NCBI GenBank assembly: GCA_019056785.1
Contig: DXJV01000087.1
Coordinates: 34,707 to 98,706, forward strand
DNA: 64,000 nucleotides
Source: Candidatus Heimdallarchaeota archaeon
GTDB taxonomy: Archaea; Asgardarchaeota; Heimdallarchaeia; JABLTI01
Reading direction: 5' to 3'
Below, piece after piece: positions 2,014 to 50,681 of this stretch. The position numbers and the translations under genes are program-made. The notes under the pieces are model-generated. The model saw only the letters and a list, made by a program, of their open reading frames with translations. It searched no databases and had not been told where the DNA came from. The stretch's first letter is position 1. Each line of letters starts with the position of its first letter.

Positions 2014-2430
2014 TCAAACAATAGTGCTGGCAGCATGTGCCACTCGAGGCCAGCGTTCTGCCGCTTCTTTAGCGACAGGACCCCTAATTTCGCTTCCACG
2101 AGGGCTTCCCTCGGGACTGGAAATAACTGCAGCATTATCTTCAAATTGTACCCACAGACCATTTGGTCTTCGATACATTTTCCGCTGACGGATCACTATT
2201 GCAGGTAAGACTTGTCGTCTCATTTGAGGAGTTCCTTTTTTGACTGAAACAATCACCATATCGCCTATGGAGGCTGTGGGGTAACGATTCAGTCGACCTT
2301 TGAAACCTTTAACTGCAATAATCTCAATTACTTTCGCACCGGTGTTATCAGCGCACGTTAACCGTGTGCCAACGCTAACACCCTTGCTGAGTCTTGGGAG
2401 AGATATTCCGGTTACTTTTCTTCTTGACAT
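2014..2430 (-). CDS. rpl14: 50S ribosomal protein uL14
   Basis: [27 protein letters not shown]; start moved to ATG 2430. Confidence 0.98.
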
Positions 2431-2452
2431 TTTTCCATACTCCTCAAGTATT

Positions 2453-2800
2453 TCACTGTTCTTTGCCTTCAGTAGGCTGCTTTTCTTTTGCAATTACAAC
2501 ATAAGCAATAGTCTTGCTTAATGGTCGACATTCCATAATTTTGACGATATCACCTTCCCGAGCATCGATGCAGGGAGGATTATGAGAGGCAATTGTGCTG
2601 TGCTTTCGTTCATATCGCTTGTATTTTTTGACGAAAGAGAGGTAATCTCTTCGAACGACTACAGACTTTTGCATTTTATGGCTGACAACTGTGCCAGTCA
2701 GAATTCTTCCTCGAACACGCAAGCTTCCATGGAAGGGACAATTTACATCGTTACAAACTTTTTCTGGTTCTGGAACATCAACGCCAATATATCTTGACAT
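2453..2800 (-). CDS. rps17: 30S ribosomal protein uS17
   Basis: [32 protein letters not shown]. Confidence 0.97.
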
Positions 2801-2808
2801 CTTTTCTT

Positions 2809-3117
2809 TTACCACCTTTTACGAATACTTTTTTTCAATCTATTTTCTGGTTGTCCTTTTAATACCCAGCCTTCAACATCCACCTGCTCGCCAGATGGGA
2901 GAGTAAATCGGAATATGCAGTCTTTTTTCGGGACCTTTATGCGTTGGCGTTGTCCAAGAGTAGCAGTGGGAAAGGGTTCAATAACCAATAGGTTTTTCGT
3001 CTCGTCAATGACAAGCCCTTTTAGACCTATTCGTTGTTTGTCTGTTGCGGAGAGTATTTCAATAGTCAAACCGATCAACTCATGTTGGTGGATATTTTCA
3101 GGGGTTTGTGGACTCAA
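2809..3117 (-). CDS. rnp1: Ribonuclease P protein component 1 (Rpp29/Pop4)
   Basis: HELIGL, GLVIDETKN, VPKKDCIF motifs; canonical position between uL29 and uS17. Confidence 0.93.
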   Translation of the reverse strand: MSPQTPENIHQHELIGLTIEILSATDKQRIGLKGLVIDETKNLLVIEPFPTATLGQRQRIKVPKKDCIFRFTLPSGEQVDVEGWVLKGQPENRLKKSIRKRW

Positions 3118-3317
3118 AGTTCACCATTCTCTTTCATTACAGTTAATATTCTTGCGATGGTCTTTTTCACTTGTTTAACCTTGGTGGGCTTTTCAAGTGA
3201 ACCACCGGTTGCAATCCCTGCCCGTAAAACGGCAAGGTCCTTTTGCAATTTTGTTAATTGATACTTTCGCTGTTCAGCGCTCATATACCGAATTTCACGC
3301 ATTCTCAGAATTGGCAT
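3114..3317 (-). CDS. rpl29: 50S ribosomal protein uL29
   Basis: MPILRMREIR...KKTIARILTV. Confidence 0.95.
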   Translation of the reverse strand: MPILRMREIRYMSAEQRKYQLTKLQKDLAVLRAGIATGGSLEKPTKVKQVKKTIARILTVMKENGEL

Positions 3318-3320
3318 GCT

Positions 3321-4565
3321 TCATTTCTCCTTCTTTTTCTTCTTGTCTTCGGCAGATTTCGCTTTCGTCTCTTTTTTTGTTTTAGAGGAGGTTGTTTTTC
3401 CCTCTTTTTTCGCTGTTTTTGTGCTTGTTTCAGCTTTTTTCGATTGGCTCTTCTTAGCAGGAGCAGCAGCATCTTTTTCTTTAGTACTCTTCTTGGGCTT
3501 CTCAGCCGTTTTAGCCGGAGCTTTTTTCTCCTCGCTTTTCTTCTTTGCTTTCGTAGGTTCTTTCTTTGCTTTTGCAAGCTCTTTCTTTGGCTCAGCTTTC
3601 TTCCTCGGTGCAGCAGCTTTTGTCGTTGGTTTTTCTTCTGGTTTCTTTACAGCGGGTTTCTTTGCCGCGGCTTTGGCTTTCTCTTTTTTCGCTGCTGGTT
3701 CTTTTTTCTTAGCTTTCTTCTCTTCACCCGGTTCTTTCTCAATAAGCTCTGATAGCTCTTCAACCTCTAAGTCGAGAGAGGTCTTTTTCGCAACGGGTGT
3801 CTTTTCTTCTTTAACAGCGACTTCTTTTTCTTTTGGAACTTTTTCAGCCGGGGCTGCAGCTTTTTCAGGAACCGCTTTTGCTTCCTCCGGCTTTGCAGCT
3901 ACAGGTTTTTCTTCTTGTACGACTTCCGCTTCTTCTTTTGGACTAACCTCTGTAGTGGGTTCTTCCAGTTTGACGGATTTAATGGTAATTTCATCAGGGA
4001 GGTCAATATCACCACGCATAATGCTAACTGTCACACCAATCGTGCCCAATTTCATTATAGCAGTAGCATTAGCAGTTTTCACATATTGAGTACCCACTTC
4101 TCCACTCTTTGCAAGAAAGCCCATTCGATAAGCTTCATGCCGAGAGCGTTTACTGGTAAGCTTGCCCGAGATGATAATTTCGCACCCTTTTGCGCCTGCA
4201 TTAAGAACACGTCGAAGGACAGAATAGGCGGCCCGACGGCGATGCACCCCTCGCTCAATGGCAGAGACAAGTGTATACGCCATAACCTTCGGATTAAGTT
4301 CGGGATTGACCACTTCTTTTACTTCGATTTGTGGGTTGTCAATTCCATATTCATTTGCTAAGATGTCAGTGATCATACGGATGTTTTTTCCACGACGACC
4401 AATGACAATACCGGGTCGTGAAGCATAAATGGTGATACGTTCACCGAGAGGTGTTTTAGTGATTTCCACACCACCATATCCTGCTCTTTGTAGTTCTCTT
4501 GCTAAGAATTCATCAATTCTCGCTTGACGAACGCCTTTCTTAATGAAATGATTAACAGCTGTCAA
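3321..4565 (-). CDS. rps3: 30S ribosomal protein uS3 with ~215-aa low-complexity C-terminal tail
   Basis: KH domain RPGIVIGRRG, GAKGCEIIISGKL; probable TTG start at 4565 behind GAGGT. Confidence 0.97.
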   Translation of the reverse strand: MTAVNHFIKKGVRQARIDEFLARELQRAGYGGVEITKTPLGERITIYASRPGIVIGRRGKNIRMITDILANEYGIDNPQIEVKEVVNPELNPKVMAYTLVSAIERGVHRRRAAYSVLRRVLNAGAKGCEIIISGKLTSKRSRHEAYRMGFLAKSGEVGTQYVKTANATAIMKLGTIGVTVSIMRGDIDLPDEITIKSVKLEEPTTEVSPKEEAEVVQEEKPVAAKPEEAKAVPEKAAAPAEKVPKEKEVAVKEEKTPVAKKTSLDLEVEELSELIEKEPGEEKKAKKKEPAAKKEKAKAAAKKPAVKKPEEKPTTKAAAPRKKAEPKKELAKAKKEPTKAKKKSEEKKAPAKTAEKPKKSTKEKDAAAPAKKSQSKKAETSTKTAKKEGKTTSSKTKKETKAKSAEDKKKKKEK

Positions 4566-4569
4566 TATT

Positions 4570-5031
4570 TTAGACCTCTTCAATTGCTATCTCAATATGA
4601 GTTAAGTAATTATATTTCGGGGACGATGACCCTTGAGCGCGGGGGAAGAACCGTTTGACGATCATTCCTTTTTGAGAGCAAGCATGAATAATCTTCATTC
4701 GTTCTACATCCAGCCCTTTAAACTCTGCATTGTTTTCAGCGTTTTCAAGAACACTCAGAATCATCTTTGCCGCCTTCACAGGATAGCGACCAGCAGGCCA
4801 TTTTGAAAGATCTTTCCGATGAGCGACGTGTTTCTTGTGGCGTTTATAAGGAATAGAACGTTTCATTTTAATGACATCCTCGAGATATTCCTTTGCCTTG
4901 TCAAGAAACATGCCCTTAATATGGTTGCAGATCTCTCGTGCAGCCTTTGGACTGATATCAGCTTCTCTTGCACTGGCAATGGCTGTACGATCCGGGTCTA
5001 AGCCGAAAATCGAATATCCAAATTGTGGCAT
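4570..5031 (-). CDS. rpl22: 50S ribosomal protein uL22
   Basis: ISPKAAREIC, GRYPVKAA, NAENNA, PRAQG. Confidence 0.98.
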   Translation of the reverse strand: MPQFGYSIFGLDPDRTAIASAREADISPKAAREICNHIKGMFLDKAKEYLEDVIKMKRSIPYKRHKKHVAHRKDLSKWPAGRYPVKAAKMILSVLENAENNAEFKGLDVERMKIIHACSQKGMIVKRFFPRAQGSSSPKYNYLTHIEIAIEEV

Positions 5032-5104
5032 TTACATTTCCTCGTATTGTTAGTACTTTTTCTCAATAATCGTAAAGACGACTACATTCATTTTTTTCGA
5101 ATTG

Positions 5105-5270
5105 TTTGGGGGGTAAACCCAGTCTTTGATTCATACTTCAATCCAGCGAATCACTCATAGGCAGTTGATTCCTGGAACCTCCAAGAGGCGCGACTCCCCT
5201 TCTGCATAAACTTGTGCAAGGTCGGAGCCCAATTATGCACACGCTTAGATAAGTTCAGCGCTGCAGTAAT
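5105..5270 (-). ncRNA. Candidate structured leader or ncRNA upstream of the ribosomal protein operon
   Basis: GC-richer intergenic stretch with several hairpins; TATA-like TTTTTAAA on the minus strand near 5290-5297. Confidence 0.35.
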
Positions 5271-5539
5271 CTGAAACAAGAACAGTCTCTTTAAAAATCT
5301 TGTGTCATTTTTCAGCAAAAAAAAGCAAAAATAAACAAAGTAGAAAACTACTAACAGTAAGGGAAAATGCACCCACAATAATTACTTTCTAAGCTCTTTT
5401 TCTGGCTAAAAACAAGTTTGTGAAGAGAAAGGATTAAATAAGTTAGAAAGTAGCTAATAATAATCAAGAAGTATTTACAGCGCGAAAAATGAGAAATGTC
5501 TTTGAAGCATTTTGATTTACGAGCCGGGGGCAATTTAAT

Positions 5540-37074: not shown

Positions 37075-38979
37075 TTGGAAAAATCATATAAAAAAGAACA
37101 GAAGGTAAAAAGATTGTCCAAAGAAAAAACTGTAATGCTATTGAGTGGAAATGAAGCTTTTGCTCGAGGTGTCTTGGAAGCAGGAGTGGATGTTGCTGCA
37201 GCCTACCCTGGAACGCCCTCCACAGAGATCATGGAAACAATCGCGCGGTTTGGAAAGGAAACAGGGATGCATGCAGAGTGGTCCATTAATGAGAAAGTGG
37301 CCTTTGAAGTTGCCCTGGGAGCATCCTGGAGTGGCCTCCGGTCGTTTACAGCTGCAAAACATGTTGGTTTAAATGTTGCGGCTGACCCATTCTTTACAGC
37401 TACACTTTTCGGCGGCATGAAAGGTGGCTTTGTTATGGTTATCGCTGACGACCCCAGCTTTCATTCAAGCCAGAATGAACAGGATACACGGATGTATGCT
37501 CTTGCTGCCCATGCCATTTGCATGGAGCCATCTACGCCCCAAGAAGCTCTTGATATGATTAAATTTGCCTACGACTTTTCCGAAAAGTGGGAATCGCTAG
37601 TTGTTCTACGTTCCACTACTCGCTTAAGTCACTCAAGAGGACCTGTGGAGCTGGGTGCGATTCCGAAAAAAGAATCACACAAAGGGGAATTCATCAAAAA
37701 TCCCGCACAATTTGTTTGTCTACCAGCTAATGCAAGAAGAACAAAACCATTACTCATGGAGAAACTCGAGAAAATAAAGGAGTATTCAAACACATCTGAA
37801 TGGAATGTCCTTGAGAAGGGTGATAAGTCGCTACTAATTATTGCATCCGGTGTCTCTTATGAATATGTAAAAGATGCAATTCAAGAGCTCAACCTTAAAC
37901 CAACTGTCTACAAAATTGGCTTTAGCAACCCCCTCCCTGAGGGAAAAATAATCGAGTTGCTTAAAGAATATCCAAAATGTTTGATCGTAGAAGAGGTTGA
38001 ACCATATTTAGAATTAAGTGTTAAAGCATTAGCAGCAGAAAATAACATTCAAGTGCAAATTTTCGGTCGAAAAGAGAAAGTGATTCCCATCTCAAATGAG
38101 TTGAATCCTAAAATTGTTAAACAGGCAATCACTCGAGTGTTAAACTTAAAGAAAGCCGAAACAGAAGAAGGGAGTCTGCCAACAAACGCTGAAATCAATG
38201 AAAAACTGCCAAATCGCCCACCAGAACTCTGTGCCGGTTGCCCCCATCGTGCAACTTTCTTTGCTATTAAGCAAGCAGCAAAGAAACGAAAACTAGACCC
38301 GATTATGCCAGGAGACATTGGGTGTTATACCCTCGGTTTTATGCCTCCATTAAGTGCAGTAGATACAACAGTAGCAATGGGTGCATCAATTGGTATTGCC
38401 AACGGAATCGCCCAAGCAACCAATCAAGTTGTTATTCCAGTCATAGGTGACAGCACCTTTTTCCATACAGGGATTCCTGCGCTAATAAATGCCATAGTGA
38501 ATAATGCCAAATTTGTCTGTGTTATTATGGACAACCAACTAACAGCTATGACAGGTGGGCAACCAACACCCGAACTTGGGAAAACCGCTTTTGGTGAGCC
38601 GGCGGGAGTAGTTTCGCTGGAGCAAGTTTGTAAAGGGCTTGGCATTAAAAATGTCGAAGTGGTTGACCCTTATGACCTCGAGAAAACCACAGAAATTATT
38701 GGTAAAGCTATTGATAGTGGTGAGCTCTCTGTGGTCATTGCCCGAAGGGAGTGTGCACTCGAGTATACCCGCCAAGTTAAACGTGCCAAGCAAAAACTTG
38801 ACACCTATTTTGTGGATGAAGACCTTTGCACCGGTTGCCGGATCTGTGTTCGCACTTTTGCATGTCCAGCGATAACTTTTGACTATGATAAAAAGAAAGC
38901 TCATATCGATGAATCTATGTGCATGGGATGCGGGGTTTGCAGGATTGTCTGCCCCTATGATGCTTTTATAAAGAGGTGA
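37075..38979 (+). CDS. iorA: Indolepyruvate:ferredoxin oxidoreductase alpha subunit
   Basis: YPGTPSTE, KHVGLNVAAD, LCAGCPH, GDIGCYTL, GDSTFFH, two C-terminal 4Fe-4S motifs. Confidence 0.97.
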   Translation: MEKSYKKEQKVKRLSKEKTVMLLSGNEAFARGVLEAGVDVAAAYPGTPSTEIMETIARFGKETGMHAEWSINEKVAFEVALGASWSGLRSFTAAKHVGLNVAADPFFTATLFGGMKGGFVMVIADDPSFHSSQNEQDTRMYALAAHAICMEPSTPQEALDMIKFAYDFSEKWESLVVLRSTTRLSHSRGPVELGAIPKKESHKGEFIKNPAQFVCLPANARRTKPLLMEKLEKIKEYSNTSEWNVLEKGDKSLLIIASGVSYEYVKDAIQELNLKPTVYKIGFSNPLPEGKIIELLKEYPKCLIVEEVEPYLELSVKALAAENNIQVQIFGRKEKVIPISNELNPKIVKQAITRVLNLKKAETEEGSLPTNAEINEKLPNRPPELCAGCPHRATFFAIKQAAKKRKLDPIMPGDIGCYTLGFMPPLSAVDTTVAMGASIGIANGIAQATNQVVIPVIGDSTFFHTGIPALINAIVNNAKFVCVIMDNQLTAMTGGQPTPELGKTAFGEPAGVVSLEQVCKGLGIKNVEVVDPYDLEKTTEIIGKAIDSGELSVVIARRECALEYTRQVKRAKQKLDTYFVDEDLCTGCRICVRTFACPAITFDYDKKKAHIDESMCMGCGVCRIVCPYDAFIKR

Positions 38980-38984
38980 AAAAG

Positions 38985-39608
38985 ATGACCAAATTAGAGA
39001 AACCTTATCAAATAGAAATTGCAGGTGTGGGCGGGACAGGCGTCCTTACTGCAGCAATGCTTATCGGAAATTCAGCCCTCCTTCAAAATGTCCATGTCGT
39101 ACAAAGTGAAATTCATGGGATGGCACAACGTGGTGGCGTTGTGAACACAGAGATTCGGATGGGACCGGTCCATGGGCCGCTCATTCCCGACCACGAAGCA
39201 GATGTATTATTAAGCTTTGAGCTTGGTGAGACAGCACGGGCAATGAATAAACTAAAACCCAAGAATGGGATTGTTATTATGAACACACATATTATTGTCC
39301 CGCCCAGTCTTCAAATCAAGAAAGGGGCAAAATATCCATCACTAGAAGAAATCGAAAGCATTGTGAAGCAATTCACAGAGAAAGTCTATTTAATAGATGC
39401 ATTTTCCTTGGCTGAAAAAGCAGGAGATCTCCGCACACAAAACGTCGTTCTTGTGGGAGCGCTCTTTGCGACACCCGACTTTCCAATCACTCGAGAGTCT
39501 TTTGAAAAAGCGCTTACCATTCAATTCAGAAAGAAAGAACAAGTAATAAAAGCCAATATGAAAGCCTTCGAATTAGGATATAACAAAATGAAAGAACTTA
39601 TGAAGTAA
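38985..39608 (+). CDS. iorB: Indolepyruvate:ferredoxin oxidoreductase beta subunit
   Basis: AGVGGTG, SEIHGMAQRGG, ANMKAFELG. Confidence 0.96.
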   Translation: MTKLEKPYQIEIAGVGGTGVLTAAMLIGNSALLQNVHVVQSEIHGMAQRGGVVNTEIRMGPVHGPLIPDHEADVLLSFELGETARAMNKLKPKNGIVIMNTHIIVPPSLQIKKGAKYPSLEEIESIVKQFTEKVYLIDAFSLAEKAGDLRTQNVVLVGALFATPDFPITRESFEKALTIQFRKKEQVIKANMKAFELGYNKMKELMK

Positions 39609-39707: not shown

Positions 39708-40364
39708 TTGGATGATAACCGTGTAGAAGTAACCTTTCAACCAGGATTAACCAGCAGTCATATTGATGAACTGCTGTTTTTCAAGGACATGACACTACCA
39801 GATTACCTCAAATTCTTTTATCAACAAACAAACGGGGTCTTAATTGAGAGTAGCTATTTCCTAGACAAATTAGAGGACGCTTTTTCCTTTCGGGTTTTGG
39901 CGCTCGAGCATCTAACTTTTACAACCAAAAAATTGAACTTGCTGCCAGACAGACGGTTCATCCATTTTGCAAATGATGAAGAAGAAGCCATTTATTTGCT
40001 CGATATGGAAAATCTCTCACCCGAAGGACAACCACTCATACTTTTGAACATCCCTTCAGAGCAGTTCTGTATCCCACTAACCAATTCTTTTGAAAGGTTA
40101 TTAGAAAGCGCATGCCTTGGACTTTTAGCCGTGATACAAACAATTGGCGGAAATGAAAAAGGAACTTTGCCCATCATTCCCTCGAGAATGTTGAAGCAAA
40201 AAGAACGGATTAAAGCCTGTTTAAAAGATTTATTCATCGTAGTAAAACGCGAATATGACTTACTCACCATTTGGCACCTTTCCTCAAAGGCAGAACGACT
40301 CGTCCAGCTTAGCATTGTTAAATGGTTAAAAGGGCTGAAAGAATTACTAACAATAATGAAATAA
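39708..40364 (+). CDS. SMI1/KNR4 (SUKH)-like protein; true start may lie upstream
   Basis: PGLTSSHIDEL...LPDYLKFFYQQTNG...FAND...YLLD...LTNSFERLL. Confidence 0.7.
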   Translation: MDDNRVEVTFQPGLTSSHIDELLFFKDMTLPDYLKFFYQQTNGVLIESSYFLDKLEDAFSFRVLALEHLTFTTKKLNLLPDRRFIHFANDEEEAIYLLDMENLSPEGQPLILLNIPSEQFCIPLTNSFERLLESACLGLLAVIQTIGGNEKGTLPIIPSRMLKQKERIKACLKDLFIVVKREYDLLTIWHLSSKAERLVQLSIVKWLKGLKELLTIMK

Positions 40365-40415: not shown

Positions 40416-42704
40416 CTAAATTTCTTTGGAACGAGCCATAAAGGAAGCATTGATAATTTGTTGTACCGCTCGTACAAGAGCATCCTGTTCTGTCAAGAAG
40501 CTGGTTAGTTCCCCTTCTCGTGTTACAGGGGCCAAGAGCACCTCAGCACCATCGCGGGTCACAGCATAAAAGTCACGCATGGTGTATTGCCATATGGTTA
40601 TGTTTCCTTGTTCTTTCATTATTGAGATAAGTGATTCATCTCTGAAAGGATCGATGTCTGCGAGCACTCTAATTCGTACAGTTTTTGAAATTTGTTTCAC
40701 TAAAAAGTCAACAAAAGTTTGGTCAATCGTTGGCATCACAACCGTACAGGTCGATTTTGTTCGCATCAGCATATCATAAATGGCGGCCATTGAATTTTGA
40801 TTGCCATAAATGATAAGTGAATGAGGTCTCGGAACAGGGATAATTTGATCAACTGCATTTGTTATCTCTTGAAGATATGTCTTTGTTTCATTTACTTTGT
40901 AAATAATCCCGGCAAGCCGATTGGATATTTGTGAACTTGTTTCGGTTAAAGCGTCTTTCAAATTACTAAGAAAACTATCAATAACCTTACTGATTTTTTC
41001 AAGTGTATTAAACTGGTCGCGATTAAGCGTTGTTAAATAGCTATCTAAGCTATTTGTGTATTGCGAGATCATTTCGGAAGCAATCATTTTTGGTTTGCTT
41101 AGTTCCTCCTGGACCTGGGTTTTAAATGCAAATTTCATATCATCTGTGAGATAGCGGATTGTTTCGAGGGCTTTGCTGTTACTTTCATTATGCAATCGCA
41201 ACCGTTTTGAAGAATCCAAAAATAAATTCTCCAAGGTATCCTCTAAATCATTGAAAACTACATCACGAAGAGGTAAGAGAATCTCAGAGATATTCCCTTT
41301 CAATGTTTCTAAATTCTTTAATGAAATATCAAAAGCTTGTTGTGAGGAAGTTGCGATTTTAGCGCTTGCATCTTTAAGAATGTCTTTTGTCGCAGCATTC
41401 AAGTCCTTCTCAAATTTACTCGAGATTTCTGACCACTTTGTTGTTAATTTCACTTTAAGGTTCTTAATCTTTGTTTTGCCCTCTTTCAATTGTTCTGAGA
41501 GTGTAGCATCACTATTTTTCATTAAAGTAGTAATGCCTTCTACGATATTTTTCTTATAAACATTCAAAGCTTCAGAATAACGCGTCTTAATGGCTTGAGA
41601 AAGCTCATTAATTTTACTCGCACGCCTTTTCGCCTCCTCCACAAGAGCCGGGTCAGGGCGCTTTAACCGTCCCACCTTGGAGATTTCATCAATGTTCTCT
41701 TTTAAATTGCTCGCTTCAATTGAAAGTTGATCGATGTTTTTTCCAACTTCGGCAATTAAGTTGTCAACGATCCCATCAATTTTCCCTGTTTCTAACTTGA
41801 AAATTTCTTTCATTTTTGTCCGGTAATTTGTTAAGACTTCTGCATAGTCATTAGTTGCTTTGGTGATGATTGCATTAAATTCTTTTTCAAATTCCTTCAA
41901 GGCAGTAGCAAATTCTTTTATGCTGTATTTCGTTAGTGATTTGACATTTTTTTGCAAGGCAGAAATCTCTGCTTTGTTTTCTGTGAGGATGGTTTTCAAA
42001 TCGTTAGCGGCAGTAGTTTTGTAATGCTCAATGGAATTGTCGATGGGGGCAAGCATTTCTTGAATGGTTTGATTTGTTAATTGTTCGAATTTCTGCAACC
42101 GTTCTGTTGCTCTATCAGATTCTTCTCGGAGAATGATACTAATTTCATTGCTAAGATTTGAGAGTTCATTGCTGATAGAAAGAAAGGCTTTAGAAAAGCC
42201 CTCTGTAAGCAAGAGATCAAAGTCTTCGGCCAGGTTGGCAATTTTATCAGAGTGACGGTAGATAGCATTTGTTAAATCCATTTTCAACTGTTCATTGGAA
42301 GTTCGTAACTCTTCGACAATTCTATTATAAATCGGCTCCACAGCAACGCGGAATTCATCCATCTGTTTGACAAGATTGGAATAATTGCTGTCAATGCTGC
42401 TAATGAGTGAATTTTCAATATTGATAATGTCATTTTGAAATTCCTTTTCAATAAAGAGAAAGCCCTTCAGAAAAGGTTCGACAGCAATATAGCGGTTAAT
42501 CTTCCCCTCTATCTTTTTTAAATACCCGCGATTCGTTAATTCTTGGATAATTTGCTGGATTTCTTCTAAAGGCAATTGTGTTTGTAACGCAATCTCACCT
42601 AAAGAAGCATTCCCAATGCCAAGAATTGTTAAATAAACTTGTTGCTCATTTTCTGAAAAGCCAATTTGACTTAATAACGAACTTTGAACGATTTTCTTCG
42701 ACAT
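40416..42704 (-). CDS. TrmB-family HTH protein with long alpha-helical insert and C-terminal PLD-fold-like effector domain
   Basis: IGFSENEQQVYLTIL...RYIAVEP HTH; C-terminal IYG...MLMRTKS...VTRDGAEVLL. Confidence 0.8.
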   Translation of the reverse strand: MSKKIVQSSLLSQIGFSENEQQVYLTILGIGNASLGEIALQTQLPLEEIQQIIQELTNRGYLKKIEGKINRYIAVEPFLKGFLFIEKEFQNDIINIENSLISSIDSNYSNLVKQMDEFRVAVEPIYNRIVEELRTSNEQLKMDLTNAIYRHSDKIANLAEDFDLLLTEGFSKAFLSISNELSNLSNEISIILREESDRATERLQKFEQLTNQTIQEMLAPIDNSIEHYKTTAANDLKTILTENKAEISALQKNVKSLTKYSIKEFATALKEFEKEFNAIITKATNDYAEVLTNYRTKMKEIFKLETGKIDGIVDNLIAEVGKNIDQLSIEASNLKENIDEISKVGRLKRPDPALVEEAKRRASKINELSQAIKTRYSEALNVYKKNIVEGITTLMKNSDATLSEQLKEGKTKIKNLKVKLTTKWSEISSKFEKDLNAATKDILKDASAKIATSSQQAFDISLKNLETLKGNISEILLPLRDVVFNDLEDTLENLFLDSSKRLRLHNESNSKALETIRYLTDDMKFAFKTQVQEELSKPKMIASEMISQYTNSLDSYLTTLNRDQFNTLEKISKVIDSFLSNLKDALTETSSQISNRLAGIIYKVNETKTYLQEITNAVDQIIPVPRPHSLIIYGNQNSMAAIYDMLMRTKSTCTVVMPTIDQTFVDFLVKQISKTVRIRVLADIDPFRDESLISIMKEQGNITIWQYTMRDFYAVTRDGAEVLLAPVTREGELTSFLTEQDALVRAVQQIINASFMARSKEI

Positions 42705-42810
42705 CTCATCAGCACACCTGGATACCTCATTTTTGGATGTTTTTTTCTAATAAAATAATTTTCTCTTATAACAAGTGTGGTTATTTTTTTAATCTTTAAT
42801 AATTATTTTC

Positions 42811-46309: not shown

Positions 46310-49300
46310 TCAAGTTTTGATGTTTTTGGAATCAATTTGTGTTGCTAAGCCTTCACGAGTTAAAGCGTCTATGGTTTCAAAAACTCTTCTAAAGTATTCT
46401 TTTGCTTCAATCTCATTTTTATCGCCACCCGGTTTTATAAAGGTTTCACGATTTCCCAAAAGAATTAATTTTGCTTTTGCACGACTAATTGAGACATTCA
46501 GCCTTCGCCACTCAGAATGTAATTGACCAATGATATTTTCCTTATTGCTATTTGTTAAACTAATTATTATTATCTCTCGCTCATCACCTTGGAAACGATC
46601 GACAGTATCAACCCGGATATTTTCAATGATCTCATCGGCAAGTCCAATGGCGCGCATTTCGCTGTAGATCAAATTGTTTTGATTTCGATATGGTGAAATG
46701 ACACCTACTTGTTTGGCAATTTCAAGTTGCGCGGTTTCCTGATATTGTTTTAGAAAGTGCGCAACAATAATAGCAGCTATTTTCGCTTCCCGTAAATTAA
46801 AACGCGACTCTGTTTGAATTTCAACATCTTGCTGCCCTTCAAAGGCTTTGGGGTCATTGGCGGTATTTATAAAAACAATTGGTTGTTTAGGATTAAATAT
46901 TTGAGCGATGATTTCTTCTTTTGTTTTTTCAATGAGATCTTTTTCAAAAGATGAAAGAAAATCGGTTAATGAATGCTTTCCAATTTCTTCATTTGCTGGT
47001 TGATAATCCACTTCCGGATAAAAAGCGGTTCTAATAATTTTGCAAATAGCCTCATTCATCCTGTATTGCTTATCAAGAATAATGACATTTCCAAATTTTT
47101 TGCCCCATAGTCGGTGTAATCGCTCGAAAAGGGAGGTCTTTAAACTGTCTCCTGGGATCAATCCCGCCTTACAAAGGCTTTTGGGGATTGAAGGGGTGTA
47201 ATTTTTCGTTTCCTCTGCGACAACAGGTGGGAGTTGGAAATGGTCGCCAACGAGAATAATACGAGGATAGCCATCTGTTGAATCCGTTTTAGAAGTGAGG
47301 TGTCGGAATGCGCCCAAACATGCCGGCTCTGTTGCTTGGCCGGCCTCATCAACGATGATCCATTTGAAATTCACTCCTTTTAGAAGATTGCTCCCTACAC
47401 TCCCCAAAGTGCCAACAACAATTCCTGCTTTATTAAAAAGTTCATTTCCTTGTTGAAGGATAGTGACCAGCTTCACTGCATCAGCTTTTTCACCCATCGT
47501 CTCTTCGTAGGCAACAATTTTGGGGATGATAAAGTTCTGAACCTCAGGTGGATGTTCCTTTGAATATGACTCCAATCGAATAATGTATGGCTTTAAGTCT
47601 GGGAATGCCGAGAGTTTAATTATCACCTCATCCGCAGCTCGATGAGTGTTTGCCAGAATTAAAACAGCTTTTGTCAAAGGGGTGGCCTCATCAACCTCTT
47701 GAGAACGCAATAAATATGCTTCAGCAAACATTTCCTTCGCCATCTGAGCAATCATCCGCGTTTTTCCTGTCCCCGGTGGACCTTGGACAAGCATAATTTC
47801 GCCTGCCTTTAAACCCAAAGCTTTCTCAATGGCTTCTACTTTACTTGAGTCAAGAACAGACAGTAGGGCAGTTCGAGGTACTCGCTTAATATGCTTTGGT
47901 TTTTGTAACCCCAAAAGTAATTGAACAGTATAAGGTAACTCCGAATCAGTAATTGTTCGCCCTTGAATTCCCGAACGTGCCATAGCACCAAATAAAAAGT
48001 CAGTCAATGAACGAGACTGCCATTTTGAGAAGAGGACATTCTCCACTTGATCTACACGAAAAGTATCAACTTTCTGGTTTCGACCCTTAATAATAGAGCG
48101 GGTTTTTATGACAATTTCTTCGCTTCGTAACGATTGTACTTTCCCTTCTATGCTGAAAATTTCTCCTGGGATTAGATGGGTAGGAGTGACAAATACATCA
48201 TCCCCCTCTCTAATTCGGGTAAAAATCCTTTTCGCACTTTTTAAGGTTAAGAGATATCTATAGGAGTCAAATTTCACTTTCTTTAAATTCGAGATTGTTA
48301 CTCCCTGTTTTTCTAAAACGTCAATATTAGTTGTCGCCAAGCGATAGAGATGTCGTTTGACATTATTCAACTCGAATTTCAATTGTTTAAAGTACCACGC
48401 CCAATACTCGAATAATGACTGTGGGAAATGCAGCCAAATATCAGGGTCTAGCATTCGTTTTCCATCGGCGCAAATACCCAGCTGGTTAGAAGGACAATAA
48501 CTACAGACCCTGAACCAATTACTGCTTAGAAGGTTAAAGTCTGTCCCGAGAGCAGGCATATAACGTTTTGAGAGGAAGCGATTGATTTTATAGCGATCAT
48601 ACCCTGAGAGTAAACCAGATTCAATGGCAAAAGCGATATTTCTCGTTTGAAGAAGGAGATTCCAATATTCTTCGCAGTTTTCTTCTTCCAAGTTTATTTT
48701 TCGTCGCTTAATAACAGCATGTTGTTCTAAGGGGATAATCTCTGGGTTATCCTCAGAGAGACCTGCATCAGCATCGAAAAATTCTATAAAGGTTTTTGGG
48801 GTGCGCCCGGTTATTTTTTTGATAATGTCATGATAAGCAAACGCCTGCATGCCCCCAGGATGGGCAGCTCCTGTGAAAGGGTCATAATCAGATTCGATAT
48901 AATAACGACTTCCGGTTTTGATTTCCCATAATTCTTCGAAGGTTTTTCGCAGAATGATTTGGTCTGCCCTTCCAGAAATTCCTCGTTCCGGGGAAAATAA
49001 CAAGGACTCATTTAAAAGCTGGGTGGGGGATACCCCTTCAAATTGTTCGATAATATTATCAACGACAATGGAATCTACCTGGATGGGCAATTTCAAGTCC
49101 TTATTAGGACCACGTTTGTAGCTTTTTCTAATTAAAATATCAAAATTATCTCGCCAAACATCAAGAATGGCCCGATGATAAGCGCGCATGGCTTTTACGG
49201 GATCCTGGCTACGTATCCATTCGTTTGAAGCATATTGGATTCCTTTATGAATGGCATTTCCACGGACATAGCCAATTGATGTGGGTGTTAGTCGGATGCT

Positions 49301-49789
49301 TCTTTGTAAACCTAGAAACGATTCATAGAAGTATTTCGCTGGGCAGTTAAAAACGCTTTCCAGCTCTGCTCCTGTAACATTAAAATCAGGTGCAATAATA
49401 AATTTCAAGGGGATAAGATAACCATTCATACCATTCGAGGGATTCGTTCCACTAGTAGCATCGGCAATGGGGAACCAAACGGCTTGAAGTACTTGAAGGA
49501 GCAGCTCGGGTGGTTGATTATCTGAAAGCAAGCCAGCATAACAATAACGCAAAACATTTTGATAGTGAGAAAAATTCGGCTGTTTTTGTCTTCCGGGGTA
49601 CCATTCCTTTGGGTAAACGAACGCATTACAAAGAAAAGCCTTTGTATTTGGCTCATACAATTTTAAAAAGAGGTAATTGCCTTTTTCTGCCTTCCGATCT
49701 CTTTCAGCCAGTACCTGGAAATCTACAAATTTCGGCTGTTTTGGATTATCTCTAAGGTAAGCTAAAGAATTCACAAGTTGTTCATTCAT
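46310..49789 (-). CDS. Dna2-like Fe-S nuclease (Cas4/PD-(D/E)xK) fused to SF1 helicase
   Basis: CPAKYFY, GNAIH, GRAD, EIKTG, QAFAY, CSYCPSNQLGIC; GPPGTGKT, DEAGQ, GDHFQLPP, QYRMN, TVDRFQGDE, RRLNVSISRAK. Confidence 0.92.
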   Translation of the reverse strand: MNEQLVNSLAYLRDNPKQPKFVDFQVLAERDRKAEKGNYLFLKLYEPNTKAFLCNAFVYPKEWYPGRQKQPNFSHYQNVLRYCYAGLLSDNQPPELLLQVLQAVWFPIADATSGTNPSNGMNGYLIPLKFIIAPDFNVTGAELESVFNCPAKYFYESFLGLQRSIRLTPTSIGYVRGNAIHKGIQYASNEWIRSQDPVKAMRAYHRAILDVWRDNFDILIRKSYKRGPNKDLKLPIQVDSIVVDNIIEQFEGVSPTQLLNESLLFSPERGISGRADQIILRKTFEELWEIKTGSRYYIESDYDPFTGAAHPGGMQAFAYHDIIKKITGRTPKTFIEFFDADAGLSEDNPEIIPLEQHAVIKRRKINLEEENCEEYWNLLLQTRNIAFAIESGLLSGYDRYKINRFLSKRYMPALGTDFNLLSSNWFRVCSYCPSNQLGICADGKRMLDPDIWLHFPQSLFEYWAWYFKQLKFELNNVKRHLYRLATTNIDVLEKQGVTISNLKKVKFDSYRYLLTLKSAKRIFTRIREGDDVFVTPTHLIPGEIFSIEGKVQSLRSEEIVIKTRSIIKGRNQKVDTFRVDQVENVLFSKWQSRSLTDFLFGAMARSGIQGRTITDSELPYTVQLLLGLQKPKHIKRVPRTALLSVLDSSKVEAIEKALGLKAGEIMLVQGPPGTGKTRMIAQMAKEMFAEAYLLRSQEVDEATPLTKAVLILANTHRAADEVIIKLSAFPDLKPYIIRLESYSKEHPPEVQNFIIPKIVAYEETMGEKADAVKLVTILQQGNELFNKAGIVVGTLGSVGSNLLKGVNFKWIIVDEAGQATEPACLGAFRHLTSKTDSTDGYPRIILVGDHFQLPPVVAEETKNYTPSIPKSLCKAGLIPGDSLKTSLFERLHRLWGKKFGNVIILDKQYRMNEAICKIIRTAFYPEVDYQPANEEIGKHSLTDFLSSFEKDLIEKTKEEIIAQIFNPKQPIVFINTANDPKAFEGQQDVEIQTESRFNLREAKIAAIIVAHFLKQYQETAQLEIAKQVGVISPYRNQNNLIYSEMRAIGLADEIIENIRVDTVDRFQGDEREIIIISLTNSNKENIIGQLHSEWRRLNVSISRAKAKLILLGNRETFIKPGGDKNEIEAKEYFRRVFETIDALTREGLATQIDSKNIKT

Positions 49790-49802: not shown

Positions 49803-50681
49803 TCAAGTTGACTTAAAAGGAGGGAAACTCAGAATTTCCTTTGTTTTTTCCAGAAAATTTACATCATAAATCTCAGTAAGAAGGTCAATAAAGATATCTC
49901 GAAGGTCACCGGATTTCGCAATTGTTGGGCTGTCATCCAATTCCTCGCTCAATCCTGTTTCAATACTTAGATATTCTTTTAAATTCACAAGAACTTCTTT
50001 TAAGCGTTCATTTTTATTTGCAATTGTTGTAAATGAGTCTTTATTAAGCAGATAAATTTTATATAACCAGATATATGCAGCAAGATACTCAGAGTTCATT
50101 AATGAAATTGAACATCTCGCTAATAATTGATGGGTTAAAGATGCCACCTCTTTTTTTGTAAGTGCTTCTACAAAGTTGAAAAGCAAATCTAAGAGTTGAA
50201 GGTAGTGCTGCTGTTCTGCTTTATCAAAGAGGTCATATTTCTCAATCGATAGTCGGATGTCTTTGAAAATCGGTTGAAGATTGCGCACAGCTCGTTCCGG
50301 ATTTGCTTGAATTATTGCTTTAAGAAGCTTGTTTAATTGTTTGTAAAGATTGACTTTTTGTTGGATGGTTTTATCGGTTGTTTGTATAGCAGCCAAAGAT
50401 AAATGGTCCATACTCTTTCGGAACTGCCAGGAGTTCAAGGCGCGTTTCCCTATAGAAAGGTTTTTCTTTGCTAAATCTTCTGCCGGATTAAAACTAGTCG
50501 AATGAATTTTCAAGGGAGCACCCATTCGTTCAGCACTGAGAATTTTTATAACAATATCTTTTGTTGAGTCTTTACTTGTTACTACAAGAACAGGATTTTT
50601 TGAATTATATCGCTCTGACTCAATTCGTTCTATTTCTTCTTTCACAGCTGTAAAAATCTCGCTTTCAAATTCCTTGCTCAT
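49803..50681 (-). CDS. Hypothetical protein, partial CARF-like N-terminus plus helical domain
   Basis: 292-aa ORF ending 13 nt before the helicase start; NP...ALNSWQF segment. Confidence 0.6.
   Translation of the reverse strand: MSKEFESEIFTAVKEEIERIESERYNSKNPVLVVTSKDSTKDIVIKILSAERMGAPLKIHSTSFNPAEDLAKKNLSIGKRALNSWQFRKSMDHLSLAAIQTTDKTIQQKVNLYKQLNKLLKAIIQANPERAVRNLQPIFKDIRLSIEKYDLFDKAEQQHYLQLLDLLFNFVEALTKKEVASLTHQLLARCSISLMNSEYLAAYIWLYKIYLLNKDSFTTIANKNERLKEVLVNLKEYLSIETGLSEELDDSPTIAKSGDLRDIFIDLLTEIYDVNFLEKTKEILSFPPFKST

Follow-up and report, generated by a model that had tools for sequence, protein, structure and literature searches.

The window examined here is a 64,000-nucleotide stretch of DNA from Candidatus Heimdallarchaeota archaeon (assembly GCA_019056785.1, contig DXJV01000087.1, positions 34,707 to 98,706 of the forward strand). 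One of its genes encodes a 762-residue protein whose two ends are those of a TrmB-family protein and whose middle is a helical rod some 40 nm in length, most likely doubled back on itself. The best explanation we can offer is that this is a TrmBL2-like protein shaped like a lollipop, whose head would sit on DNA and whose rod would serve as a spacer or tether. We give this whole explanation a probability of about one half. The case for the family of the head, the fold of the rod and the function of the whole differ in strength, and we will present each in turn along with the readings that compete with it.

The earlier note on this DNA, made from the letters alone, gave the gene's extent and no strand; the open reading frame lies on the minus strand. 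All the landmarks it named are found: RYIAVEP is residues 71-77, GRLKRPDP is residues 345-352 and PVPRP is residues 623-627. The protein is highly constrained in length. Across 38 orthologues, with identity going down to 53%, all 762 columns align with zero indels. Orthologues of at least 56% identity are restricted to the host's own family, where they are present in 10/10 genomes. Judged by these sequences, it is a core, slowly evolving gene in that family.

The N-terminus is a TrmB-type winged helix-turn-helix (wHTH). The Pfam family PF01978 (TrmB wHTH) matches residues 11-77 with an E-value of 4e-11 and 43 bits, above its gathering score of 25.6, which places the domain in that family and bears out the claim that a TrmB-like HTH ends near residue 76. 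TrmB itself (PDB 3qph) matches by sequence over residues 8-97 (E 4.5e-6). The profile of the whole family finds 3qph at E 4.4e-14 and TrmBL2 at E 8.7e-5, the sequence similarity to TrmBL2 being confined to the wHTH. We also used an AlphaFold2 (AF2) model, built on a 59-sequence alignment, with a mean predicted local distance difference test score (pLDDT) of 72. In this model the wHTH matches MarR and other wHTH folds at Z about 10-11 with a root mean square deviation (rmsd) of 1.3-2.6 Å. The protein is not TrmB in the strict sense: the NCBIfam equivalog NF040851 scores 33.3 bits against a cut-off of 600. Part of the TrmB pairing-helix zipper (Phe81/Phe84/Leu88/Ile91) may be kept: F84 of TrmB faces F84 here and L88 faces F89, and both of these Phe are invariant. 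At the other two positions F81 aligns with G81 (with F82 adjoining) and I91 with D92.

The C-terminus was claimed to hold a PLD-like (phospholipase D-like) effector domain starting near residue 621, and the model agrees. Residues 628-762 superpose on the first effector subdomain of TrmB (2f5t, residues 110-241) at Z 17.4 and rmsd 2.0 Å over 128 residues. Other structure matches are 3qph (Z 16.4), NucT (Z 14.9), TrmBL2 5bpd (Z 14.2), FAM83 (Z 14), Nuc (Z 13.3) and Zucchini (Z 11-12), and the best Foldseek match is TrmBL2 (E 3e-8). The superpositions on NucT, Nuc, Zucchini and FAM83 identify the fold as the PLD alpha/beta fold. The Pfam family PLDc_2 scores 14.5 bits, below its cut-off of 27. 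An alignment of the superfamily has no invariant or near-invariant His anywhere in this domain, so the catalytic HxK(x)4D (HKD) motif is absent; the invariant columns are G634, D718 and E721. With the first effector subdomain the protein comes to its end, and thus has neither the second subdomain nor the sugar-binding residues that TrmB carries there (Asn305, Gly320-Glu326).

A wHTH, a helix and the first effector subdomain only is the layout of TrmBL2, as the structure matches indicate (PMC4158304). TrmBL2 (TK0471/PF0496; PDB 5bpd, 5box, 5bpi, 5bqt) is an abundant chromosomal protein, the chromatin protein of the Thermococcales, that binds DNA without regard to sequence and forms filaments (PMC8707338, PMC4158304). 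The two proteins have the same set of domains, both without a sugar-binding subdomain, but they differ greatly in size. TrmBL2 has 264 residues and one short pairing helix, while the protein here has 762, with a helical insert of ~540 residues that includes ~460 extra ones as a fold-back rod. DNA binding and filaments are described for TrmBL2; the protein here has Gln in place of Tyr50. TrmB from P. furiosus and T. litoralis (3qph, 2f5t) shares the wHTH, the first effector subdomain and perhaps part of the zipper; it differs in having the second subdomain with its sugar-binding residues, as well as Tyr50/Asp51, and in having no inserted rod of ~540 residues. We believe two observations suggest how the rod arose. 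A 323-aa relative from Sigynarchaeota aligns to residues 1-111 and 574-759 only, and TrmBL2 residues 75-264 (the helix plus the C-terminal domain) superpose on model residues 582-762. Together these point to a short TrmBL2-like protein that received ~460 residues (2 x 230) within its pairing helix.

The repeat of the rod is a hendecad and not a heptad. When the hydrophobic periodicity of residues 78-620 is averaged over 21 gap-free orthologues, both halves give one sharp period of 3.66-3.68 residues (11/3), with almost no power at 3.5. This, along with AF2 helices running across ~77-619, upholds the description of the insert as amphipathic helix. The hendecad phase stays constant from residue 78 to ~320, which is ~240 residues or 22 consecutive repeats; it collapses at ~320-350, and a new register then runs to ~600. 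Few positions make up the hydrophobic stripe: a, e and h are hydrophobic at 0.7-0.8 and d and i only partly, so it covers three strong and two partial positions out of 11. A stripe this narrow is typical where helix packs against helix, and is not typical of a face that binds lipid.

This bears on the possibility that the rod consists of 11-mer helices of the apolipoprotein or perilipin kind, which would open on lipid and so link membranes or lipid bodies to a head that binds DNA. The exchangeable apolipoproteins (ApoA-I, ApoA-IV, ApoLp-III) do share the 11-residue amphipathic periodicity. Profile searches match ApoA-IV and ApoA-I at E 1e-12 to 1e-9, and Pfam lists Apolipoprotein and ApoLp-III below its thresholds. 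However, these Pfam scores leave the protein outside both families (PF01442, 31.8 bits against a cut-off of 90; PF07464, 24.6 against 36.3). The apolar stripe is narrow, there are no Pro-punctuated 22-mers, the spacing of Pro is irregular, and the mirror-symmetric covariation presented below indicates two arms packed together. We find the lipid reading highly improbable. The matches are best explained by the shared periodicity, and the resemblance is most likely an analogy through it.

The earlier note described a single basic, Pro-rich break in the insert, GRLKRPDP, at the midpoint. Its placement is right: the centre of the motif, 348.5, is the exact middle of the helical span 77-620. That it is single is true of the hydrophobic register, which is lost only at ~320-350. 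It is not true of helix breakers, since ten other Pro and Gly are conserved within the rod (P124, G169, P220, P233, G321, G390, G409, P448, P478, P538) and the model has two low-confidence joints. The helices of the model are residues 77-156, 173-343, 352-515 and 537-619, with a loop at 344-351. The two joints mirror each other about residue 347 (sums about 691-696), and the hydrophobic register continues straight through the first. The residues flanking the tip (321-343) are conserved above the rest of the distal rod. Comparing the two arms with hhalign gives probabilities of at most 19%, with no sign of internal duplication.

A midpoint hinge that relatives do not conserve had been named as telling against the hairpin; the break is recognizable in relatives of only 14-20% identity. 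Subfamilies of ~750-766 aa have a break of the pattern basic-x-[FLM]-[KR] followed by G/P at the aligned midpoint, although an end-to-end alignment of proteins so similar in length will by itself tend to put it there. Searches for such a central break over the length classes, using Pro/Gly windows and two-phase splits, are noisy (36/74 splits fall in 0.4-0.6), and in several classes the strongest Pro/Gly cluster lies at 0.47-0.51. These tests lend modest support to a midpoint break across the family.

We infer the fold-back geometry, and the closing of the head, from the model. Residues 183-504 superpose on 304/309 residues of the Thermotoga chemoreceptor hairpin 2ch7 (Z 12.2) and residues 184-481 on Tsr 3zx6, where Z-scores of about 10-12 between long helices speak of geometry and not of homology. 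MarR-type structures align across model residues 1 to 612-616, so the end of arm 2 adjoins the wHTH. The orthologues suggest the same arrangement. Column entropy at position i correlates best with that at S-i for S = 693-696 (r 0.44 raw, 0.85 smoothed; 38 orthologues). Mean antiparallel covariation peaks at S = 696 (z 3.2) and its ten best registers are all 690-700, while no parallel register exceeds z 2.3; the placing of the variable columns is symmetric too, which may inflate both this signal and the entropy match. The two strongest pairs by mutual information with average product correction (MI-APC) are 227/464 and 313/380, and conserved kinks also pair in mirror (P220/P478, G286/G409, G307/G390). 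Entropy, covariation and kinks all have their mirror point at residue 348. The indel-free length fits a hairpin, in which any change of length on one arm would need matching on the other. A complex prediction for arm 1 (78-346) against arm 2 (347-620) scored 0.08 against a mark of 0.32 in a run without controls, and weighs neither for the hairpin nor against it. The aligned ranges of 2ch7, Tsr and the MarR-type structures, the mirrored entropy and the covariation together support what the earlier note had proposed, an antiparallel hairpin with two arms of ~270 aa that brings the HTH and PLD-like domains together as a head.

The rod may instead not be a single extended hairpin at all. It could form a compact bundle by folding at the Pro/Gly sites or the joints (four helices of ~12-25 nm, for example), or its arms could be exchanged between subunits. 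The many conserved Pro and Gly of the rod would suit this, as would the low-pLDDT breaks at 157-172 and 516-536 and the low predicted template modelling score (pTM) of the model, 0.31. AF2 run on the single sequence (pLDDT 43, unusable) broke the rod into helices of ~85 residues, and one of the structure matches is the folded elbow of cohesin. The arguments on the other side seem sounder to us: the hydrophobic register is unbroken through P124, G169, P220 and P233, residues 183-504 superpose as one continuous hairpin, and the covariation favours i+j of ~696 throughout. The model predicts no compact bundles, the outcome that had been named as telling against the hairpin, and the two mirrored joints may still allow folding there. 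We regard a compact or exchanged fold as very unlikely. Hydrophobic content is equal in the proximal and distal rod, so it does not distinguish two-helix from four-helix packing.

The extended hairpin had been likened to SMC proteins and chemoreceptors in its geometry, with no ATPase. This comparison stands, since 2ch7 and Tsr superpose and scans of Pfam and NCBIfam find no ATPase or SMC family. SMC and Rad50 proteins share with it a head made of the N- and C-termini on a long fold-back arm of ~40-50 nm with a possible elbow, and the cohesin elbow and JetC come up as weak fold matches. Unlike SMC and Rad50, the protein here lacks an ABC ATPase head, and its turn is a loop of 8-9 residues where they have a hinge domain or zinc hook; its repeat is the hendecad where theirs is an interrupted heptad; and no homology was detected. 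The cytoplasmic hairpin of the methyl-accepting chemotaxis proteins (MCP; 2ch7, 3zx6) likewise shares a long continuous hairpin, a conserved tip and strict length conservation. The Z of 12.2 is nevertheless within the range of unrelated long helices, the period is 11/3 (3.67) here and 7/2 (3.5) there, and Pfam finds no MCP signalling-domain family, so that geometry alone agrees. MCP hairpins dimerise into a four-helix bundle, and the comparison made here with the model is one of monomer geometry.

The likeness to chemoreceptors raises the possibility of a sequence-specific transcription factor with the hairpin as a signal-conducting stalk, in which an event at the tip is relayed to change the DNA binding of the head. 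The MCP-like geometry, a tip conserved above the neighbouring distal rod, and a gene with its own promoter-like element are consistent with this, and strict length conservation is in chemoreceptors a sign of constraints between paired arms. Yet the repeat is a hendecad and not a heptad, no MCP signalling-domain or HAMP match was found, no conserved sensor or kinase partner lies nearby, and the effector-binding subdomain is missing. We doubt this reading and consider it quite unlikely.

Conservation on the surface of the rod points to interactions near the head. On the solvent-facing side of the head-proximal rod (78-209/210 and 496-620) conservation is 67-85%, with most segments at 78-85%. In the distal rod it is 52-65%, rising again at the flanks of the tip. 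The globular domains are conserved at 0.87-0.89, and the proximal rod surface comes near to this. Being conserved even on its solvent side, the proximal rod is more than a spacer and offers a surface for interactions; by analogy with the pairing helix of TrmB, a dimer interface would be the simplest reading.

The mechanism we propose for this TrmBL2-like lollipop is as follows. The head would consist of the wHTH and the PLD-like domain, and the stalk of two straight helices packed by the narrow hendecad stripe. An antiparallel hairpin of ~2 x 230 residues, inserted into the pairing helix, would give two arms of ~267 residues each. The stalk would measure ~40 nm fully extended, or ~25 nm if folded at the mirrored joints, and would end in the conserved basic Gly/Pro loop. 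By analogy with TrmB and TrmBL2, two copies may dimerise through the head-proximal rod, residues 78-210 with 496-620, where the rod is most conserved, and two winged helices may then seat on DNA, chiefly through their conserved basic wings. A rigid rod would keep the tip at a fixed distance, where it could bind a second partner, for example another DNA-bound copy or a cellular structure. The protein would then be an ATP-independent architectural spacer or tether and not a sugar-sensing regulator. That its closest fold relatives are TrmBL2 and TrmB supports a DNA-associated architectural role.

Several points weigh against this proposal, besides the symmetry of the variable columns. The hairpin geometry is read from the ranges of an AF2 model that align in structure matches, and the pTM of that model is only 0.31. 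The DNA-recognition residues of the TrmB family are Tyr50/Asp51 of the recognition helix (PMC4158304, Table 1). In a gap-free alignment over residues 8-84, Tyr50/Asp51 of 3qph face Gln50/Gln51 here, and Gln50 is nearly invariant among orthologues. The recognition helix, residues 46-58, is acidic (Glu47, Glu48, Glu54), and residues 8-77 carry a net charge of about -3. The basic residues of the wHTH are placed in the wing (R59, K63, K64, K68 and R71). The acidic recognition helix and the change of Tyr50 to Gln weaken, in this one respect, the DNA-tethering, chromosome-organising or filament-forming role that the earlier note had suggested. The neighbouring genes, which include an indolepyruvate:ferredoxin oxidoreductase (IOR), a SUKH protein and glycosyltransferases, give no link to chromatin, and this context is not kept in a Lokiarchaeial relative, where it differs.

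The same residues are an argument for a scaffold that does not bind DNA, in which the winged helix would now serve for contacts between proteins and the rod would be a cytoskeletal element or spacer with protein partners at head and tip. Besides Gln/Gln for Tyr50/Asp51, the acidic helix and the net negative wHTH, this reading can draw on fold matches of the wHTH to the protein-binding winged helices of RPA32C and RPC62, and on the presence of several paralogues of different fixed lengths per genome. What holds us back is that the wing keeps invariant basic R59, K63, K68 and R71, and that all characterised members of the TrmB family bind DNA (PMC4158304). Even MreA, which is also without the Tyr, is a DNA-binding regulator (PMC4158304). 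We therefore think the scaffold unlikely and stay with the DNA-seated lollipop. Since Gln50/Gln51 and the acidic recognition helix leave only the wing basic, and the argument is by analogy, we hold DNA binding by the head to be somewhat better than an even bet, and the tether or spacer function to be a tentative suggestion with the odds against it.

The features of the gene and its protein are collected in Table 1. They include a BRE/TATA-like block (a transcription factor B recognition element followed by a TATA-like box) upstream of the start codon. This block is kept in four orthologous loci, so the rod gene probably carries its own promoter.

Table 1. Parts of the rod gene and its product, with positions counted within the window
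Feature	Residues	Positions	Strand	Basis and remarks
Whole coding sequence (P0001)	1-762	40416..42704	minus	762 aa + stop, ATG start
BRE/TATA-like block, GAGAAA-ATTATTTTATT		42749..42765	minus	begins 61 nt 5' of ATG; 4 orthologous upstream regions aligned
TrmB-type wHTH	9-77	42474..42680	minus	Pfam PF01978, PDB 3qph, fold matches
Arm 1	78-343	41676..42473	minus	~22 hendecads in one unbroken register; core a/(d)e/h
Possible joint 1	157-172	42189..42236	minus	non-helical, pLDDT <50 in model; invariant G169; low confidence
Tip/hinge loop, V-G-R-L-K-R-P-D-P	344-352	41649..41675	minus	G345 and P350 invariant, P352 nearly so
Arm 2	353-619	40848..41648	minus	hendecad register drifts over 353-450, constant over 452-600
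Possible joint 2	516-536	41097..41159	minus	low pLDDT, non-helical in model
Pro-rich linker, I-I-P-V-P-R-P-H, from arm 2 to the C-terminal domain	620-627	40824..40847	minus	sequence, conservation, AF2 model
C-terminal alpha/beta domain, PLD-like	628-762	40419..40823	minus	structure superposition of AF2 model

The protein belongs to a large Asgard family that is apparently undescribed; in the limited collection of literature searched, we found no publication that describes long rods of this TrmB-like kind. When 1.84 billion representatives were searched exhaustively, 238 relatives came back, and a profile search of a word-indexed database added almost no members. Of the proteins fetched, 189 have both end domains; their inserts range from ~170 to ~1560 residues and all are strongly 11/3 periodic. 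The named members are all Asgard (Heimdall, Loki/Promethearchaeota, Thor, Jord, Hod, Baldr, Sigyn, Borr and Atabey), as are the nearest Atlas clusters. A survey of the phylum found a match at E <= 1e-10 in 187/301 genomes and in 66/90 high-quality genomes. Three more paralogues with a TrmB head and a long rod are encoded in the genome studied here, their open frames measuring 702, 756 and 787 aa. The matches to these paralogues and to an ordinary TrmB-like gene of 322 aa in the same genome lie at G000:C84:143446-145356, G000:C43:12801-15035, G000:C84:176636-178732 and G000:C80:7030-7407.

Orthologous loci agree in the order of their genes, which is a 292-aa protein of no recognized function, a Dna2-like nuclease-helicase, a further such protein of ~175 aa and the rod gene, with SUKH and the IOR beta and alpha genes convergent. 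Identity at these loci is 35-56% for the flanking genes, against 56-70% for the rod protein. On the convergent side of the window, the gene at 39708-40364 (plus strand) encodes a SUKH-1/SMI1-KNR4 protein whose position is kept in relatives (42-56% identity). The span 37075-39608 (plus strand) encodes the alpha subunit (TIGR03336, 763 bits) and the beta subunit of IOR, syntenic with the rod gene in relatives.

The immediate upstream neighbour of the rod gene, in every orthologous locus seen, is P0204 (42811-43344, minus strand), a 177-aa protein of no known family. It has a C-x3-C-x5-C cluster, and its Atlas model resembles tandem winged-helix proteins (AAA_assoc_C and DUF2250, with a TM score of about 0.5). 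We considered it as an obligate partner of the rod and rejected the idea as unsupported: it is conserved at 35-41% identity only and is absent beside the paralogues. Farther upstream, 46310-49789 (minus strand) encodes a 1159-aa protein with a PD-(D/E)XK nuclease and an Upf1/IGHMBP2-like superfamily 1 (SF1) helicase in the order of Dna2, preceded by the 292-aa gene at 49803-50681 (minus strand). In relatives this pair adjoins the ~175-aa gene and the rod gene. In the window a DUF7033/polysaccharide-deacetylase gene and a glycosyltransferase family 4 (GT4) gene intervene between the pair and the side of the rod gene. In one relative, at locus L001, the Dna2-like gene (2248-5352) was called as three open reading frames of 462, 216 and 330 aa, and may be split or frameshifted. 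At locus L004 a Lokiarchaeial relative of 760 aa is flanked by two genes for Arf/Ras-like small GTPases (1003-1539 and 4659-5213). Such genes are numerous in Asgard genomes, so this may be chance.

We also reject the idea that the locus is a defence island. The rod does match ZorA in PADLOC (E 5e-8), but the match covers only the long helical tail of ZorA and we ascribe it to periodicity. The helicase half of the 1159-aa neighbour matches PADLOC MkoA at E 3e-76, which reflects the Upf1-like core they share. The locus shows neither a defence nor a chromatin signal that we would trust. The rod gene is core and slowly evolving, and in this it is unlike defence genes.

Asgard archaea are the closest known relatives of eukaryotes. 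To our knowledge, how their chromatin and the interior of their cells are organized is largely unknown. The boldest form of the lollipop reading, and a long shot in our own estimate, is that these proteins make up an Asgard-specific class of ATP-independent, DNA-anchored rigid rods: molecular rulers or tethers that hold chromatin at set distances from other DNA, membrane or cytoskeleton. Each orthologue group would have a fixed length, and inserts of ~170-1560 residues would make hairpins whose lengths run from roughly 10 nm to beyond 100 nm. If this were true, the closest prokaryotic relatives of eukaryotes would have a structural layer of genome organization with no described counterpart. 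More generally, if the head binds DNA, the family would space or bridge DNA in a new manner that needs no ATP. Otherwise it would be a new rod-shaped scaffold made from a transcription-factor fold. On either outcome, a hendecad hairpin this long and unbroken should be of interest to structural biology.

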